Below, piece after piece: positions 13,998 to 31,193 of a DNA stretch of 32,000 nucleotides. A program made the position numbers and the translations under genes. The notes below the pieces were generated by a model. That model saw nothing but the letters and a program-made list of their open reading frames with translations, had not been told where the DNA came from and searched no databases. The DNA is from Nitrosopumilus sp. b3. Its GTDB lineage: Archaea; Thermoproteota; Nitrososphaeria; Nitrososphaerales; Nitrosopumilaceae. Within the stretch, counting starts at the first letter, position 1, and each line of letters starts with the position of its first letter. Location: the NCBI RefSeq assembly GCF_014078525.1, contig NZ_MU078694.1:327885-359884 (forward strand), given 5' to 3'.

Positions 13998-14648
13998 TTG
14001 ATAAGTAATTCTTGGAATAAAGCAGAAGGAGAAAGTATCTCTCAAAAAGTTATGGGAAGGGTAAAACCTGATGAGCCATTAAAGAACAAAATTGATTTTG
14101 CACAAAAAAAATTACAATTTCAAATTTCAAAATTAGAATCAATAAATGAAAAATTACAGAAAAAACATGATGTCATATTTGAAAAGATCGTAAATGCACA
14201 AAGAAACAACAAGCCAAGTTATGCCCAAGCATATGCCGGGGAATTAACTCAAGTAAGAAAAATGAAAAATATGGTAAGCGGGGCAAAACTCTCAATGGAA
14301 CAAGTTAAGCTTAGACTAGATACTGTTTCAGAATTAGGAGATGTTGTAGTAACTCTTAGTCCATGCATGTCAATCATCAAAGGTCTTAGTCCATCACTTA
14401 GTGGAATCATGCCAGAAGCAAATGCCTCTATGCAAGATTTATCTCAGATACTCGGAGATGTAATGTCGGGATCTTCAGTGAGTATGGGAGATACAATGAG
14501 TGCAGGAGTTGAGACAAATGCAGACACACTTGCAATTCTTGAAGAAGCTCACAATGTAATTGCAGGACAGACAAAATCATCCATTCCAGATGTTCCTGAA
14601 AATCTCAAAAAACAAATTGTTGAGAGAAAATCAGATATTTTCATTTAG
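13998..14648 (+). CDS. cdvB: ESCRT-III (Snf7/CdvB-family) protein, short paralogue without a C-terminal winged helix
   Basis: Aligns by eye with Sulfolobus CdvB: VIFEKIVNAQ / LFEKVIRAQ, AQAYAGELTQVRKM / ATIYAQEISDIRKM, EQVKLRLDTVSEL / EKVRLKLETVQEL, GIMPEA / GIAPEV. The TTG at 13998 is the longest-ORF start. An in-frame ATG at 14052 is an alternative. Confidence 0.8.
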   Translation: MISNSWNKAEGESISQKVMGRVKPDEPLKNKIDFAQKKLQFQISKLESINEKLQKKHDVIFEKIVNAQRNNKPSYAQAYAGELTQVRKMKNMVSGAKLSMEQVKLRLDTVSELGDVVVTLSPCMSIIKGLSPSLSGIMPEANASMQDLSQILGDVMSGSSVSMGDTMSAGVETNADTLAILEEAHNVIAGQTKSSIPDVPENLKKQIVERKSDIFI

Positions 14649-14653
14649 AATTT

Positions 14654-14995
14654 TTATTTTGATTTCTTTTTACTTTTCTGAACTAAAATTTTCTTTATTC
14701 TAGAAATTGTAGGATAACTGTATCCTCTTCTACGATAATTAGCTATCATCATCTTCCAGTTTTTTAATCTCCATTGGGCTTGCTCCGTAGTTACTGAATG
14801 AACTTCTTTTTGGATAATGCTTTTTCTGCCTACCTTTAGAGTCCCTGCATCTTTTGCAGACCACCTATTTTTTGCAAATTTTAATCCAGTAAGAATCTCA
14901 CTTACGGGCATTTCTTTGAAATATTCTTTTAATTTTTTTAATTCTATATCAGATGGTTTTTTAGAAATCGGTAACTCAATAGTCGTTTTAATCAT
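14654..14995 (-). CDS. Hypothetical basic protein
   Basis: 113-aa ORF with an ATG start and a Lys/Arg-rich C-terminus (KSKKKSK). No family recognised. Confidence 0.55.
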   Translation of the reverse strand: MIKTTIELPISKKPSDIELKKLKEYFKEMPVSEILTGLKFAKNRWSAKDAGTLKVGRKSIIQKEVHSVTTEQAQWRLKNWKMMIANYRRRGYSYPTISRIKKILVQKSKKKSK

Positions 14996-26197: not shown

Positions 26198-26271
26198 GCC
26201 TCCCTAGCTCAGCGTGGTAGAGCAACCGGCTGTTAACCGGTTGGTCACCAGTTCAAGTCTGGTGGGAGGCG
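26198..26271 (+). tRNA. tRNA-Asn (anticodon GTT)
   Basis: Folded by hand. Acceptor gcctccc/gggaggc, D arm gctc-agcgtggta-gagc, anticodon arm accgg-ctGTTaa-ccggt, variable loop tggtc, T arm accag-ttcaagt-ctggt, discriminator G. No encoded CCA and no intron. Confidence 0.92.
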
Positions 26272-26276
26272 CTTCA

Positions 26277-26304
26277 TTATTTCTAAACTCGAGTTTTGAA
26301 ACAT
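26277..26304. repeat. 28-bp palindrome copy A (ttatttctaaa-CTCGAG-ttttgaaacat), 3 arm mismatches
   Basis: Read directly from the sequence. Begins 5 bp after the tRNA-Asn 3' end. Confidence 0.85.
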
Positions 26305-26336
26305 CATTATTCATACCCCTAAAAATTAAAATAGGC

Positions 26337-26364
26337 ATATTTCTAAATTCGAATTTAGAAATAT
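26337..26364. repeat. 28-bp palindrome copy B (atatttctaaa-TTCGAA-tttagaaatat), perfect, extendable to 30 bp (26336-26365)
   Basis: Read directly from the sequence. The reverse complement equals the forward sequence. Confidence 0.95.
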
Positions 26365-26452
26365 GGATCGGTTGATAGTAATTGGTTTAGACAATTAGAC
26401 AACATAGATCTAATAGATGATCGCATATCTAGAATAATGCAGGGGGTTTACA

Positions 26453-26701
26453 TTGGTCAGAACTAGAAGGGCCAACAGATATTGTGTTGATTGTGGCGCT
26501 AGACTAGTGTATTATCCAAGACTATCTAATCCAAAAGCGCCAAATGAACACAGAGTTCTAGTTTATGCATGTCCTGATTGTACTGATGATTTTGAAAAGC
26601 CCAAAATGTTTTCAATCAGACGTAATCAGGTAGAAGATCCCCTAGAAACAGTCGAGATAGAGATCACACAGATACAGAAAAAATCAATAGTGTCAAAATA
26701 A
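26453..26701 (+). CDS. Small zinc-ribbon protein
   Basis: CVDC...(24 aa)...CPDC four-Cys ribbon. TTG start preceded by an SD-like aGGGGGt 6 nt upstream. Confidence 0.55.
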   Translation: MVRTRRANRYCVDCGARLVYYPRLSNPKAPNEHRVLVYACPDCTDDFEKPKMFSIRRNQVEDPLETVEIEITQIQKKSIVSK

Positions 26702-26712
26702 TTTGAAAAAAT

Positions 26713-26940
26713 ATGGAGCATACAGAAAAACCCAGAAGTAATGCTTGGTTTTTGTTACCCGTATTTTTGGGGATAATTGGTGGAATAATTGCATTCTTTA
26801 TTTTACGGCAAGATGATCCTCGTAAAGCAAGAAACTGTTTGTATCTAGGTGTTGTTTTAATGATTATTGGAATTATATTCAATATTTTGGTGGCATCGTC
26901 AATTCCAGGCTTAGATTCAGGCTTTAATGTAAATGTCTAG
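26713..26940 (+). CDS. Small two-TM membrane protein
   Basis: Two hydrophobic helices, AWFLLPVFLGIIGGIIAFFIL and LYLGVVLMIIGIIFNILVA. ATG start 12 bp after the zinc-ribbon ORF. Confidence 0.6.
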   Translation: MEHTEKPRSNAWFLLPVFLGIIGGIIAFFILRQDDPRKARNCLYLGVVLMIIGIIFNILVASSIPGLDSGFNVNV

Positions 26941-26976
26941 TCTGAATTTTTCTTGTTTTACAAGTACAAGTTTTTA

Positions 26977-27004
26977 ATATTTCAAAACTCGAATTTAGAA
27001 ATAT
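26977..27004. repeat. 28-bp palindrome copy C (atatttcaaaa-CTCGAA-tttagaaatat), 1 arm mismatch
   Basis: Read directly from the sequence. Lies 36 bp after the stop of the 26713-26940 ORF and 65 bp before the 27070 ATG. Confidence 0.9.
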
Positions 27005-27069
27005 CAATAATTTAGAGACGTGATCAACAGGATTTAGAATCATATAGAACTAGTCCTGATTGTTTTTAC

Positions 27070-27519
27070 ATGAGTGCATCAAGACTAAGAGATAGTGTTG
27101 AAAGATGGTTAATACATGAAGGGCTTTCCTTTGAAGATGTAAAAAATCCAGAAAATACTTTTCAGATTTTAGTAAAGCATGCAGGTCAGACGGGCATTCC
27201 AATAGAGATATTTGAACCAAAAGGGCAACCAGGCATTCTAGTAATAGGGGCCAAAGTTGTAATGAAAAATAATCAAATTGTAAGGTATTTGGGATTTAAT
27301 CAACAAGAAAAAGAAAATTTTGAAAAAAAAGTTTCAGACTATTGCTACTCAATTCAAGCAATAAACAAAAACATTACAGAAGATGGAAAACAGAAGATTG
27401 GAGTATATGTTGTACTTGACGATAAAGAAAATATCAACCAACAAACAGTTTTTGATGCAATAGAAAGCGTATCGGAAAAACATGAAAAAACATCCAGATT
27501 TTTGTTAAAAACATTCTAA
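27070..27519 (+). CDS. Hypothetical cytoplasmic protein (possibly YbjN/DUF2299-like; weak recollection)
   Basis: 149-aa ATG ORF with a TATA-like TCATATAGA about 25-30 bp upstream. The family call rests on general pattern only. Confidence 0.55.
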   Translation: MSASRLRDSVERWLIHEGLSFEDVKNPENTFQILVKHAGQTGIPIEIFEPKGQPGILVIGAKVVMKNNQIVRYLGFNQQEKENFEKKVSDYCYSIQAINKNITEDGKQKIGVYVVLDDKENINQQTVFDAIESVSEKHEKTSRFLLKTF

Positions 27520-27521
27520 AA

Positions 27522-27731
27522 ATGGACGATTTATCAATTCTACGAGTACCTTATAACAAAAAATCAATATTCTATAATATGAAAAGTAAAACTTCAAAAT
27601 CAAAACCAAGAGAAGTAACACTATCTGCTGCTGAGCTGTCAAGATTTGGCATGGGGGTAATGAGTAAAGCACTCAAAGTTGTCAATACTGCCAAAAAAGG
27701 AAAAATCACAATCAGAGTAGAAAGAGTGTAA
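27522..27731 (+). CDS. Hypothetical small basic protein
   Basis: 69-aa ORF starting 2 bp after the preceding stop, with an internal Met at codon 20. Followed by a hairpin plus T7. Confidence 0.45.
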   Translation: MDDLSILRVPYNKKSIFYNMKSKTSKSKPREVTLSAAELSRFGMGVMSKALKVVNTAKKGKITIRVERV

Positions 27732-27753
27732 ATTCCAGGTTTTTGTCTTATGT

Positions 27754-27778
27754 AGGGGTAAAACATCCCCCTTTTTTT
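27754..27778 (+). terminator. Candidate terminator: AGGGG-8 nt loop-CCCCT hairpin running into T7
   Basis: aggggtaaaacatccccctttttt lies 23 bp after the 27731 stop. Archaeal termination typically uses oligo-T. Confidence 0.4.
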
Positions 27779-28236
27779 ACAAAAAATGTGTGTTCAAAAG
27801 TGCATCCATAGAGAATAAAATTAGAATTATTGAATATAGTATGTGAAAGAAATTGTTTTGCAGATTGGGGAAGATACAATAAAAGATTCATTTGATTCCA
27901 CAAATAATATTTTTGAAGAGTTTAGAATATTCTCATCAAGTTTATTTTTTCAAATAATGGATATTGTGACTCCGATGTTTCAAAATTTTGTAAAATAGGC
28001 AAATTAATGAAAATATGCCTAAATGTTAAACCCCCCCAAAAAAATTGTGTATTTACTCACAAGATGATTTTTCCAAAAACAGGCATTTAGAAGGGGGGTG
28101 TAACACTTGTGCCTAAATACAAAATGCAACCATAAAACCACCAAGCTCTCCCAGCTAAACATATCCAAACTATTGATGTTGTGCGTAAAAGCTAAACCCC
28201 CTAAAATTTATGAAAAAATAAAGAAAAAATGAGGAA

Positions 28237-28902
28237 TTAATTTCCTACATTTATCAAACAGAGATTTTCTAATGTACTGCCAGAAGCAACTGGTACGATT
28301 TCAAATGATACAATTGTTGGCACAATTGTTCCATCGCCCAATACATCAGTAGGTACATTTCCAACACGAATTTTCTTACCAGATTCTTTTACTGGATAAT
28401 CTGGAGAAACACCAGGTACACCACCATTAGTGGCAACTGAGCTTGCAACATCTACTTCCAATCCTTCAGTTAAACCGGTTGCAGTTTTACATGCATCAGT
28501 GTATGGCATTAAATCAAGAATATGTGCATGGAATTTTTTACCATCATTATCCCTTGTGAACTCTTCATCAAGTAATCCAACTGGATTTGGACATTTTTTG
28601 TCAGAAGCATCACCTTGGAAAGGACTATCTGAAGCACAAATGTGTGTAGTTAATGCTAACACATTGTTGACTCCGTCAGTCAAAAATCCATATCCATATG
28701 CCCCTTTTTCTTTAATTTTTCCTTCAGTTTTAATTTCTGCTTTAAGGAATGTACCATCATCATCAGTGTGGTAAGTTACTTTTGTTTCATCAATTTTGAG
28801 ATAATCAGGTTTGTCTTCATCAGCAGTAACATTTTGTGCAAATATCAAAGATATTGCAAAAATAGTTGCTATAGAGACTCCCAACAGGGTTGTTTTTGTC
28901 AT
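28237..28902 (-). CDS. Secreted hypothetical protein (four Cys)
   Basis: The ATG at 28902 gives the signal-peptide-like MTKTTLLGVSIATIFAISLIFAQNVTA, preceded by GGGGT 9 nt upstream. The 30 extra N-terminal codons in the ORF track are unlikely to be real. Confidence 0.65.
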   Translation of the reverse strand: MTKTTLLGVSIATIFAISLIFAQNVTADEDKPDYLKIDETKVTYHTDDDGTFLKAEIKTEGKIKEKGAYGYGFLTDGVNNVLALTTHICASDSPFQGDASDKKCPNPVGLLDEEFTRDNDGKKFHAHILDLMPYTDACKTATGLTEGLEVDVASSVATNGGVPGVSPDYPVKESGKKIRVGNVPTDVLGDGTIVPTIVSFEIVPVASGSTLENLCLINVGN

Positions 28903-29031
28903 TGGTACAAACCCCAAACAAGATAAATAAAAAATTAACTGAGAATAGTATGAAATTATGCTCTTTTTGTGAAAAATCCAAAACAAAATCACAAAGTTTT
29001 ACTCAAAACCCCTAGGTTTTCCGATCAAATC

Positions 29032-29568
29032 ATGCCAAAAAATAGGCGTTTCAACTATATACCAAAAAAAATCAGCAAATTCATGGCAGGATTGGGTGTA
29101 GTGATCGTTATTGGAGCCATCATAGCTTCAATGGTTGTTGCAAATTACATGTATGCGCAATATACCACAAACTACATCGAGGCAGTATCAGGAAAGCCAA
29201 TCATCGTTGGACCAGTAGAATATACCATAACATTTGAGGGAACACATGAGGGAAGTAAAGAAGTTGCACCAGAAAACACTTTTGTAACAATAGGAATCAC
29301 TGCAAAAAATATCAGTAATGAAAAAACAATCATTTCAGGTGGACAATTTTACATTGTTGATGAAAAAGAACAAAAACATGAAGCAGTGTTTGGAGAATTT
29401 TCATCAAAAGATTTGTTTCTAGAAACACTAGAGCCAAACAAACCAATAGAGAGAACAACACAGTTTGACATTCCATATGATGAAGAAAAAAAATATAAGA
29501 TAATTATTCGACCACAAAAAGATCAATCAACAGTTGATACAGCTGTTGTTTGCATAACAAATTGTTGA
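29032..29568 (+). CDS. Membrane-anchored extracytoplasmic beta-sandwich-like protein (DUF4352-like)
   Basis: The ATG at 29032 is preferred over the GTG at 28969. A TM helix (GLGVVIVIGAIIASMVVA) is followed by the pattern VTIGITAKNISNEKTIISGGQFYIVDEKEQKHE...LEPNKPIERTTQFDIP, typical of DUF4352 as I recall it. Confidence 0.55.
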   Translation: MPKNRRFNYIPKKISKFMAGLGVVIVIGAIIASMVVANYMYAQYTTNYIEAVSGKPIIVGPVEYTITFEGTHEGSKEVAPENTFVTIGITAKNISNEKTIISGGQFYIVDEKEQKHEAVFGEFSSKDLFLETLEPNKPIERTTQFDIPYDEEKKYKIIIRPQKDQSTVDTAVVCITNC

Positions 29569-29660
29569 TCGGAGAGCAAGAATTGTGTCAAATTTTTCTA
29601 TAGTCAGGGTAGTAATGTATGACTTTTACCATATAACACATATGATTTTTGCAAAAAGTT

Positions 29661-30053
29661 ATGGCAGTATCCAAAGCCAAAAGAGCCGAAGCAGCTAAAA
29701 AAGCAGCAAGAACTCGAAAGAGGAATGCAGCTAAAAAAGCAGCAGAGGCACTAAAAGCAGCAGCAGCTCGTAAGAGAAAGGCAGCAGCAACTCGAAGGAA
29801 GAACGCTGGCAAAGCAGCTCCTAAAAGAAAGGCAGCAAAACGCAGAGCAGCTCCAAAGAGAAAAACTGCAGCTAAAAAAGCAGCTCCAAAGAGAAAGGCA
29901 GCAAAACGCAGAGCAGCTCCAAAGAGAAAAACTGCAGCTAAAAAAGCAGCTCCAAAGAGAAAGGCAGCAAAGAGGAAAGCAGCACCAAAAAGAAAAGCTG
30001 CACCTAAACGCAGAGCCGCTCCAAAGAGAAAGGCAGCTAAACGTCGACGTTAA
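29661..30053 (+). CDS. Histone-H1-like Lys/Ala/Arg/Pro-rich low-complexity basic protein
   Basis: MAVSKAKRAEAAKKAARTRKR...(AAPKRKAAKRR / AAPKRKTAAKK)n...RRR. 130 aa from the ATG at 29661. Locally GC-rich because of Ala/Arg/Pro codons. Confidence 0.7.
   Translation: MAVSKAKRAEAAKKAARTRKRNAAKKAAEALKAAAARKRKAAATRRKNAGKAAPKRKAAKRRAAPKRKTAAKKAAPKRKAAKRRAAPKRKTAAKKAAPKRKAAKRKAAPKRKAAPKRRAAPKRKAAKRRR
29827..29971 (+). repeat. Perfect 66-bp (22-codon) tandem repeat, 2.2 copies
   Basis: 29827-29892 and 29893-29958 are identical base for base. A third copy matches for 13 nt and then diverges. Confidence 0.9.
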
Positions 30054-30098
30054 GCTGTCTATACTATCTTTTTTCTTATTTTACATGTTTAATTAATA

Positions 30099-30126
30099 AT
30101 ATTTCTAAACTCGAATTTAGAAATAT
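30099..30126. repeat. 28-bp palindrome copy D (atatttctaaa-CTCGAA-tttagaaatat), perfect arms
   Basis: Read directly from the sequence. Lies between two convergent stop codons, 45 bp after 30053 and 9 bp before 30136. Confidence 0.95.
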
Positions 30127-30135
30127 TTGAAATTG

Positions 30136-30543
30136 CTACTCATTCATCTTTAATTCAGGCAAAACAAAAACTTTGTTTGGTTTAATTTTGAGGATGACTC
30201 TTTTTTCATCATCACGTTTGAATGGATAGCGGTCCCGCCCCATGTATTGTTTGGTAAGTTTGTCTGCATGTTTGTATTCATAGTCTGGAATTAATTCCTC
30301 AACTGTTCCACGAATTGTTGTCATGTCTAGTGGGTTATCTTTTGATACAACAGAGACTGCAACTCGCGGATCACGTAATACATTTTTGTGTTTTATTCTG
30401 CCCTCTGCAGTATTTACAAGGACATACCCATTTTCAAAATTTGCCCACACAGGAGAGACTTGAGGAGAACCGTCCTTCATTACAGTTGCAATGAAAACAA
30501 GATTTTTCTCAGAAAACAACTGTACAACTTTTTCATCAATCAT
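30136..30543 (-). CDS. Pyridoxamine 5'-phosphate oxidase-family (split-barrel flavin/F420-binding) protein
   Basis: VFIATVMKDGSPQVSPVW...VLVNTAEGRIKHKNVLRDPRVAVSV is the characteristic PPOX-class N-terminal barrel pattern. Confidence 0.7.
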   Translation of the reverse strand: MIDEKVVQLFSEKNLVFIATVMKDGSPQVSPVWANFENGYVLVNTAEGRIKHKNVLRDPRVAVSVVSKDNPLDMTTIRGTVEELIPDYEYKHADKLTKQYMGRDRYPFKRDDEKRVILKIKPNKVFVLPELKMNE

Positions 30544-30692: not shown

Positions 30693-31193
30693 TTATTTTT
30701 TGTTGGATTTTTCAAGTACATTTGTCATCGCTCTATTCATAATTTCCATTACAAGATACTGTGAATAGTCTTCAGATTTTTTTCCTTTTGATTTTGTTTT
30801 TGGAGTTAGACTTTTGAGAATTTTTTCAATTTTTGTCGATGTGTTGTCAATGACTTTTGAGTATGTAGAGTCAAAATCATCAGGCGTTTGAAAATCCAAC
30901 AGTTTAGTTGACGTGCTGTAGTATTTTGTTATTGCACCACGAGATTCCTCAATTCGTGCAATTTCAATTAATCCAGATTCTTTTAGAATTTCCAAATGAT
31001 GACGCACGGTGGTCAAGGCTTTTTTGTATCCTGTCTTTTTCAGAGCAGTTGAAATTTGGTCTGCAGATAGTGCTTGATGATACAAAATTTCTACAATTTT
31101 TGCTCGTGCAGGGTCTTCAATTGCACGTGCGTGTCCAATACTTGTCGTAACAATACGATTAACTTTGATTTGCTTTTCTAGTAACGTTGACAT
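30693..31193 (-). CDS. ArsR-family winged-helix transcriptional regulator with a C-terminal extension
   Basis: AIEDPARAKIVEILYHQALSADQISTALK...TVRHHLEILKESGLIE is the ArsR/SmtB HTH_20 pattern. Confidence 0.75.
   Translation of the reverse strand: MSTLLEKQIKVNRIVTTSIGHARAIEDPARAKIVEILYHQALSADQISTALKKTGYKKALTTVRHHLEILKESGLIEIARIEESRGAITKYYSTSTKLLDFQTPDDFDSTYSKVIDNTSTKIEKILKSLTPKTKSKGKKSEDYSQYLVMEIMNRAMTNVLEKSNKK

Follow-up and report, generated by a model that had tools for sequence, protein, structure and literature searches.

A 28-bp palindrome conserved in ammonia-oxidising archaea and in two kinds of their viruses

Introduction

The window, a stretch of 32,000 nucleotides from Nitrosopumilus sp. 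b3 (contig NZ_MU078694.1, positions 327,885 to 359,884), contains a gene for tRNA-Asn followed by a series of protein genes. Four copies of a 28-bp palindrome, named A to D, lie between these genes and are the subject of this study. The four palindromes are real. They are fixed in place and strongly conserved, both in ammonia-oxidising archaea and in two groups of their viruses. These archaea rank among the Earth's most abundant microbes, and their cis-regulatory and chromosome-maintenance DNA elements are almost unknown. A 28-bp site that is invariant across anciently diverged orders and common to two unrelated virus groups provides a direct handle for fishing out its binding protein. It can also serve as a signature that assigns a host to abundant, otherwise unannotatable marine circles of 4.2 kb.

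The Locus and its Four Palindromes

Searching the window with the pattern ATATTTCTAAAYTCGARTTTAGAAATAT, with up to three mismatches allowed, gave four matches to ATRTTTCTAAA-YTCGAR-TTTAGAAAYAT, where 100 dinucleotide-preserving shuffles gave a chance expectation of 0. A fifth copy was not found in the 32 kb even at six mismatches. An earlier, sequence-only reading of this DNA had reported the same four 28-bp sites of 11-6-11 layout, together with their intergenic placement, their central hexamers and the extension of copy B to a perfect 30-bp palindrome, and had seen no full copy elsewhere in the window; the pattern search and the coordinates bear out all of these points. Its description of the arms as almost invariant fits copies B, C and D (0-1 mismatch) and is slightly generous for copy A (3 mismatches). 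The copies and their neighbours are listed in Table 1.

Gene orientation converges at copy D, in the window and in relatives alike; the GC skew over the 32 kb is confounded by coding strand. Promoter-like boxes resembling GGTTTAAAT are found ~30 nt before start codons in the window, and the box that precedes DUF2299 is similar to a motif arm. The arm as a generic TATA box was ruled out: TTTAGAA occurs in just 2 of 148 upstream regions, and the usual box is nearer to GGTTTAAAT. Rfam returned nothing but tRNA in the window locus and four related loci. The histone-H1-like protein that adjoins copy D in many Nitrosopumilaceae has 130 residues, is rich in Lys, Ala and Arg, and carries AAPKRKAAKRR repeats resembling an H1 tail.

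Table 1. Palindrome copies and neighbouring features of the window (positions counted from its first letter).
Feature	Position	Strand	Description	Remarks
Copy A	26277..26304		TTATTTCTAAACTCGAGTTTTGAAACAT, 3 mismatches to consensus, core CTCGAG	Clearly degenerate; variable-number duplicate of copy B
Copy B	26337..26364		0 mismatches, core TTCGAA	30-bp perfect palindrome at 26336-26365
Copy C	26977..27004		1 mismatch, core CTCGAA	36 nt past stop at 26940
Copy D	30099..30126		0 mismatches, core CTCGAA	Between convergent stops 30053 and 30136
tRNA-Asn (GTT)	26198..26272	+	ARAGORN; Rfam tRNA, 66 bits	Copy A begins 5 bp 3' of it
Leader, copy B to zinc-ribbon gene	26365..26452	+		Ends GGAGG + TTG start codon
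Zinc-ribbon protein	26453..26701	+	82 aa, CxxC...CxxC, TTG start	No Pfam family
Membrane protein, family F11	26713..26940	+	75 aa	
Promoter-like element of DUF2299 gene	27031..27047	+	GATTTAGAATCATATAG	Conserved in alignments of ~35 loci
DUF2299 protein, family F1	27070..27519	+	Pfam PF10061, 5.8e-23	42 loci
DUF4352 membrane-anchored protein, family F9	29032..29568	+	Pfam PF11611, 1.6e-12	Synteny
Lys/Ala-rich histone-H1-like basic protein, family F23	29661..30053	+		
PNPOx-like protein, family F7	30136..30543	-	Pfam PF01243, 1.7e-19	
ArsR/HTH_20-type winged-helix regulator, family F10	30693..31193	-	Pfam PF12840 + PF01022	Syntenic with copy D, 29 loci

Distribution and Conservation of the Motif

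Genomes of 185,579 species, one per species, were scanned for exact matches to TTCTAAANTCGANTTTAGAA. At least 120 stretches matched, and 114 of the 120 matches listed belong to Nitrososphaerota, with both major orders (Nitrosopumilales and Nitrososphaerales) represented. The genera among the matches listed are Nitrosopumilus, Nitrosarchaeum, Nitrosopelagicus, Nitrosotenuis, Nitrosotalea, Nitrososphaera and Nitrosopolaris. The other six matches listed are bacterial or Asgard, and their sequences diverge outside the scanned pattern. More than 100 genomes carry the motif, with one to six copies per locus. Its consensus is ATRTTTCTAAAYTCGARTTTAGAAAYAT, in which positions 4-11, 13-16 and 18-25 are essentially invariant and the TCGA centre is 100% invariant among the copies compared. 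The motif sequence was not found in any paper of the literature searched.

Open reading frames (ORFs) and tRNAs were called in the loci of all relatives (L numbers), and the proteins were clustered into families (F numbers). At least 95% of the motif-bearing stretches from Nitrosopumilaceae are one and the same locus, and near-perfect copies are therefore not scattered over the genome.

A palindrome can be conserved as a hairpin or as a double-stranded site, and the substitutions among 142 distinct copies distinguish the two. Deviations in the arms are one-sided: pair 8-21 has 22 T/T and 16 A/A combinations and only 4 compensated ones. Pair 12-17 alone has a mild excess of symmetric combinations. 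Since the arm mismatches are uncompensated, the motif is taken to be a duplex DNA site read by a symmetric (dimeric) protein and not an RNA or DNA hairpin; we count this double-stranded character as shown.

Conserved Gene Neighbourhood

Nitrosopumilaceae keep a fixed order around the motif. Ribosomal protein L6, a 95-aa protein and tRNA-Asn are followed by one to four tandem motifs spaced 43-55 nt apart, and then by the zinc-ribbon gene, the 75-aa membrane protein, a motif, 64 nt and the DUF2299 gene. After a variable stretch come the DUF4352 gene, the Lys/Ala-rich protein, a motif, 9 nt, and the PNPOx-like and ArsR-like genes, both reversed. tRNA-Asn is the only tRNA that ever adjoins the motif (~45 loci). 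The tandem copies after it number from 0 to 4 according to the genome; Nitrosopelagicus has no copies beside the tRNA and retains C and D. One locus (L081 4527-4696) has a 71-bp unit of palindrome and 43-nt spacer tandemly triplicated beside tRNA-Asn, which bears a superficial likeness to a CRISPR array but has near-identical "spacers". The motif as a whole does not behave as a CRISPR repeat: there are at most four tandem copies, the "spacers" are duplicated or conserved, and single copies occur elsewhere. In Nitrosarchaeum sp. LAS73 (L141 1165-6503), an insertion of ~5.3 kb separates copy B from tRNA-Asn and the degenerate first copy that goes with the tRNA. A stand-alone Cas1 (Pfam 8.7e-48) is encoded in it, with no visible polymerase, and the insertion may be a decayed or minimal casposon.

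Copy B is followed by the conserved sequence TGATCGGTTG in nearly all Nitrosopumilaceae, and the leader of the zinc-ribbon gene is 75-84% identical in nucleotides across genera from the first base past this copy. The interval from B to C aligns in 55 of 55 loci, always in the same orientation relative to the tRNA, at 72-84% nucleotide identity. The zinc-ribbon protein is 80-98% identical in these 55 loci, keeps its TTG start and has been called as a gene in public contigs; its conservation at the protein level rules out the interval as a non-coding RNA. Lying directly after a ribosomal-protein operon and a tRNA, this protein may be an unrecognised component of translation or of the ribosome.

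In Nitrososphaerales, the motif instead flanks the bioB-bioF pair, and this site lies between a pair of genes, F13 (a Snf7/CdvB paralogue) and F14, and a group comprising a serine recombinase, bioA and bioD. Nitrosotalea has one motif between a thioredoxin-like gene and F13 and another beside F14. The window holds both gene sets, the tRNA-Asn side and the bio side, 12 kb apart, and its bio end is without a motif; remnant copies were searched for near the bio, F37, F13 and F14 genes of the window and were not found. A biotin operator of the BirA type was ruled out, as there is no motif at the bio genes of the window and the one in Nitrosotalea is downstream of the bio genes. At 14052-14995, the window encodes the Snf7/CdvB paralogue (198 aa) and, convergent with it, the 113-aa basic protein F14; this pair has the palindrome in Nitrososphaerales and Nitrosotalea, not in the window. 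A single-sequence AlphaFold model of F14 (mean predicted local distance difference test score of 43) was uninformative.

Position Relative to Genes

The 153 sites comprise 87 flanked by co-oriented genes, 42 flanked by convergent genes and 24 flanked by divergent genes, and 84% lie within ~45 nt downstream of a 3' end. Median distances past the 3' end are 5 nt for tRNA-Asn, 2 nt for bioF, 9 nt for the PNPOx-like gene (30 loci), 10 nt for the thioredoxin-like gene, 35 nt for F11 and 44 nt for the Lys/Ala-rich protein. Upstream of start codons, the medians are 64 nt for DUF2299 (38 loci), 61 nt for bioB (14) and 34 nt for F14 (17). Spacing to the start codon is fixed in five independent contexts, namely DUF2299, bioB, F14 and two viral contexts described below, ORF12 of the virus NMJ1 and the 4.2-kb elements. 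The motif centre lies ~76 nt before the start codon in three unrelated contexts (DUF2299, bioB and NMJ1 ORF12) and ~42 nt before start codons in the 4.2-kb elements.

Viruses and Small Circular Elements

A viral scan that left the core free gave 25 matches, none of them with a YTCGAR core; all were taken as chance matches. The scan of IMG/VR for TTCTAAAYTCGARTTTAGAA returned 48 stretches, and all but one of them (47) are entire contigs, 4.08-4.75 kb long, that bear a single copy. Six carry the copy at both ends, a sign that these 4.2-kb genomes are circular. The elements (L152-L199 except L178, and also L200-L204) are marine and virus-like, have a GC content of 38-42% and share the order of about ten small proteins. 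In each, the motif centres the sole large, AT-rich intergenic region, and divergent gene blocks start 27-28 nt from each motif end. None of their ten protein families matched Pfam or PHROGs, and thus no recognisable replication protein (Rep) or integrase was found among them. Marine assemblies, those of Tara Oceans included, contain relatives, almost always on contigs of at most 5 kb and one at a coverage of 3123. An integrated 4.2-kb element was not found; the longer contigs are concatemers of variants, with junctions away from the motif. The element proteins have no homologue in 120 host loci, and the palindrome is the only detectable link of the elements to a host.

The remaining IMG/VR match (L178, 6327-6354) and GenBank BK067785, Nitrosopumilaceae spindle-shaped virus NMJ1, are one virus. 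The single palindrome of NMJ1 (L205/L206; BK067785.1 10325-10352) lies 61 nt upstream of ORF12, within an AT-rich region of 600 bp from which gene blocks diverge. The same region holds 19-bp and 30-bp direct repeats, and ORF41 of the virus looks like a D5/superfamily 3 (SF3) primase-helicase. This group of spindle-shaped viruses has been assigned independently to Nitrosopumilaceae hosts, in a paper that does not mention the palindrome (PMC10866085).

A Proposed Operator or Boundary Site

The reading favoured here, to which we give a probability of roughly 40%, is that a dimeric DNA-binding protein of the host, conserved throughout the phylum, recognises the 28-bp palindrome as an operator or as a boundary of transcription units, and that viruses have co-opted it. 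The conservation of the sequence, its fixed positions and its presence in viruses are observations; from them we infer binding by a protein, an effect on transcription and co-option by the viruses. One dimer, or a pair of dimers, would contact both half-sites of 14 bp, ATRTTTCTAAAYTC, and with them the invariant TCGA centre. Near-perfect chromosomal copies are confined to the neighbourhood of the ribosomal-protein operon, tRNA-Asn, the bio genes and the CdvB paralogue. Placed 2-45 nt past 3' ends or at set distances before start codons, the site could control initiation, block read-through, or both. The two unrelated virus groups would have captured it in a divergent intergenic region, bringing their expression under the host protein. 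A role linked to transcription is ranked first mainly for the recurrent distances of ~76 nt and ~42 nt between motif and start codon. The restriction of the motif to one phylum, the uncompensated arm changes, the leader that begins directly past copy B, the single chromosomal neighbourhood and the placement in viral control regions also speak for it.

Several points weigh against this reading. For the binding protein, the ArsR-like regulator F10 and the small basic protein F14 are candidates only. The 42 sites between convergent 3' ends, of the type of copy D, have no promoter there to regulate. Neighbouring genes differ by order (tRNA-Asn, zinc-ribbon and DUF2299 genes versus bioB-bioF and F14), which is unusual for a conserved regulon. 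With 22 invariant positions, the centre included, the motif is more constrained than most operators, and the 14 bp between its half-site blocks do not make up a full number of helical turns. The position of the motif in the 4.2-kb genome is weak evidence, since one large intergenic region must host any cis-acting site. Lastly, the genome scan demanded 18 exact bases, and weaker sites elsewhere would escape it.

Possible Roles in Recombination and Chromosome Maintenance

A recombination site and a partition or terminus landmark remain serious rivals. Both are favoured by the sites between convergent genes, the change of neighbours between orders, the adjacent serine recombinase and the circles without a recombinase of their own. 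A tentative and rather improbable proposal joins the two: the palindrome may maintain the chromosome of these archaea as a site for dimer resolution or partition, of a type not known to have been described in archaea, acted on in Nitrososphaerales by a domesticated small serine recombinase and parasitised in trans by the abundant marine 4.2-kb elements and a spindle-shaped virus. Should the site prove to serve recombination or partition, it would supply the dif or centromere so far missing from this phylum.

A site for site-specific recombination in its own right is a rather unlikely explanation. It would either be res- or hix-like (13-2-13, cut at the central CG) and belong to a small serine recombinase encoded on the chromosome, or be dif-like and belong to an XerA-type tyrosine recombinase, and would serve dimer resolution or inversion; small circles that lack a recombinase would depend on it in trans, in the way that ColE1 depends on cer. 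Its 28 bp, two half-sites and invariant centre fit this idea, and a 13-2-13 division with invariant CG has the dyad form of res and hix. A 198-aa serine recombinase (Pfam Resolvase 1.7e-34, and HTH_7) lies 200-400 bp from a copy in 19-20 Nitrososphaerales loci and is 82-90% identical among the best 120 database relatives. It is kept beside bioA across Nitrososphaerales at 70-90% identity (for example L104 406-1002 on the minus strand, L034 4995-5585 and L041 1804-2391), and such positional conservation is unusual for the family of small serine recombinases. Against this, the recombinase gene has its own upstream repeats, unlike the motif: ~200 bp upstream of it are conserved and hold inverted GTTCAAAAAGGG repeats ~110 bp apart. 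Close orthologues look rare outside Nitrososphaerales; distant relatives are few, and the AT-rich-looking P0125 represents a rare lineage whose locus, L146, is without the motif. By tblastn, neither the window nor any Nitrosopumilaceae locus has a recombinase gene close to the motif, and no tyrosine recombinase occurs in the window or the loci examined. The literature searched describes no thaumarchaeal XerA/dif, and in known archaeal dif sites the spacer varies and the arms are oriented the other way round (PMC4640148, Table 2).

Rearrangements at the motif have been seen in a few cases. Two Nitrososphaera species genomes have bioB-bioF inverted (L034 2375-4608; L102/L085): relative to L041, L089 and L052, the segment aligns forward and both flanks in reverse. 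The breakpoints are the first and last base of the two palindromes, at a resolution that is the 28-bp repeat and not the dinucleotide. A single inversion between 28-bp inverted repeats, however, needs no dedicated enzyme. In the IS (insertion sequence)-rich chromosome OZ250170 (L038), the B-C module lies in a foreign context and its homology to the window spans only 26337-27006, copy B through C, stopping at the outer edges of the motifs. More widely, the motif makes up 1.1% of the sequence, yet in both partners it contains 10.8% of the alignment ends that lie inside loci; much of this excess reflects a conserved island and not breakpoints, since more than half of the cases continue in synteny past the motif.

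The variable tandem copy number after tRNA-Asn, the single motif on 4.2-kb circles that have no recognisable recombinase, and the terminus-like convergence of long gene blocks at copy D also suit recombination. Other features do not: chromosomes have several copies in the same order and orientation in ~55 genomes, the core has no conserved polarity, and an integrated 4.2-kb element is lacking. The B-C and C-D blocks are never inverted in these ~55 genomes, and such positional stability is more in keeping with a binding site than with a crossover site in active use.

The alternative that the palindrome is a chromosome-maintenance landmark, either centromere-like (of parS/segS type) or terminus-type (Ter- or matS-like), bound by a host protein and used by hitch-hiking extrachromosomal elements, appears quite unlikely. 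It would account for two to six near-perfect copies in one chromosomal neighbourhood whatever the adjoining genes, and for the conservation of the whole palindrome, including its centre, throughout the phylum as in bacterial parS. The CdvB/Snf7 paralogue in the same neighbourhood, the gene orientation at copy D and the occurrence of the motif on replicons without maintenance genes of their own are consistent with it as well. No ParB-, SegB- or Tus-like partner has been identified, however; the recurrent fixed spacing to start codons is not expected of such a landmark, and partition seems needless for 4.2-kb elements at very high coverage.

Unlikely Readings: Origins, Mobile Cassettes and Hairpins

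An element of a replication origin, similar to an origin recognition box (ORB) and recognised by the host initiator, is very unlikely. Such a role would explain the motif on circles without a recognisable replication protein, where it centres the only large AT-rich intergenic region and the genes diverge from it. The chromosomal copies are separated by genes, though, and do not form the ORB cluster of an archaeal oriC; no orc1/cdc6 gene occurs in the window or the loci; the flanking genes, including the ribosomal-protein operon, point to the cluster and would thus run head-on to forks leaving it; and NMJ1 has its own primase-helicase-like protein.

The sequence-only reading had proposed that the palindromes are XerA-type sites bounding integrase-less mobile cassettes, in the manner of Xer-exploiting integrative mobile elements (IMEX) or plasmid-dif (pdif) modules, and had called for a comparison of synteny. 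The intervals proved to be syntenic across genera, and the idea is already largely refuted; we give it very little credence. In its favour are the 11-6-11 parse, the differing content of the C-D interval among genomes, and motif runs split by small ORFs of no known kind in some large IS-rich metagenome-assembled genomes (L035/L133 and L087). Set against these, the A/B-C block has the same orientation in ~55 genomes of several genera and encodes a protein conserved at 80-98%, and the C-D block has a conserved core (the DUF2299, DUF4352 and Lys/Ala-rich proteins), with a variable part that is not bounded by motifs. Extra copies are often just 43-140 bp apart, too short for a cassette or gene. 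A relative 97-98% identical to the window (L149) lacks the gene at 28237-28902: 780 bp (28219-28998) have given way to 109 unrelated base pairs, at junctions neither of which looks like the motif. The missing gene encodes a 221-aa secreted protein, at a small hypervariable spot between DUF2299 and DUF4352. The sole relocated module is B-C in the IS-rich genome L038, and site-bounded modules of the IMEX or pdif kind were otherwise not seen.

The same reading had seen the asymmetric core shared by C and D, in direct orientation, as a hybrid of the halves of A and B. All four pyrimidine/purine combinations occur at each of A, B, C and D, for example 11 TTCGAA, 12 CTCGAA, 10 TTCGAG and 11 CTCGAG at site A; the two degenerate positions vary freely at every orthologous site, and the apparent hybrid is incidental. 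What survives of the sequence-only reading is that the 28-bp dyad is special and not random, presumably calls for recognition by a protein, coincides with a few breakpoints of rearrangements and is carried by integrase-less circles; modules bounded by XerA sites do not survive.

A hairpin acting at transcript ends, as a bidirectional terminator or a stabiliser resembling repetitive extragenic palindromic (REP) elements, which had been offered as another alternative, is hardly credible: most sites do lie just past a 3' end and a palindrome would serve both strands, yet the arms show no compensatory changes, there is no T-run, the invariance across the phylum is of sequence and not merely of structure, the other ~30 gene ends of the window are without the motif, copies are confined to one neighbourhood, and the divergent contexts and viruses have it away from 3' ends.

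Comparison with Known Systems

The dif site of Thermococcales is TTTAGATATAA-N6-TTATATCTAAA, present in a single copy with a spacer that differs between species (PMC4640148, Table 2; PMC2958812). The motif resembles archaeal XerA/dif in its 28 bp of 11-6-11 layout with near-perfect inverted arms, its intergenic, AT-rich setting and a nearly equal arm string (TTTAGAAATAT in the motif, TTTAGATATAA in dif). Unlike dif, it is present in several copies, and its TCGA centre is invariant and often fully symmetric, in contrast to the variable, asymmetric and polar spacer of dif. Furthermore, the TTTAGA end faces the centre in the motif and faces outward in dif, and the motif could be tied to no XerA.

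Site I of Tn3/gamma-delta res (28 bp) and the Hin/Gin sites hix/gix (26 bp) likewise have half-sites of 12-14 bp around a conserved central dinucleotide. As in these systems, a gene with Resolvase and HTH_7 domains adjoins the sites in Nitrososphaerales, and a segment bounded by two sites has been inverted. The sites of Nitrosopumilaceae differ in having no recombinase nearby, just one evolutionary inversion has been seen, and the promoter region of the recombinase itself has different repeats.

Bacterial parS, TGTTTCACGTGAAACA, is also a palindrome conserved across a phylum-level group, with few copies clustered in one region. The G-variant of the motif has the same outer hexamers, TGTTTC/GAAACA. 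The motif differs from parS in being 12 bp longer, in having A at position 3 in 59% of copies, and in a location that looks terminus-like and not origin-like. To our knowledge, no ParB partner is known in ammonia-oxidising archaea.

The 4.2-kb elements may be compared with ColE1 and cer, the attP of the IMEX CTX-phi and R6K and Ter. In each case, a tiny circle without a recombinase or maintenance genes of its own bears an exact host-chromosome site; unlike those systems, the 4.2-kb elements have yielded no observed product of integration or multimer resolution.

The cell-cycle repressor of the aCcr1 type in Sulfolobales offers a comparison with an operator. Its palindromic operators are reportedly shared with viruses, which encode a homologue of the regulator; the proteins of the 4.2-kb elements differ from this in having no detectable host homologue. 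As with aCcr1, the motif is a short dyad near host promoters, including those of cell-division genes, that is also used by viruses.

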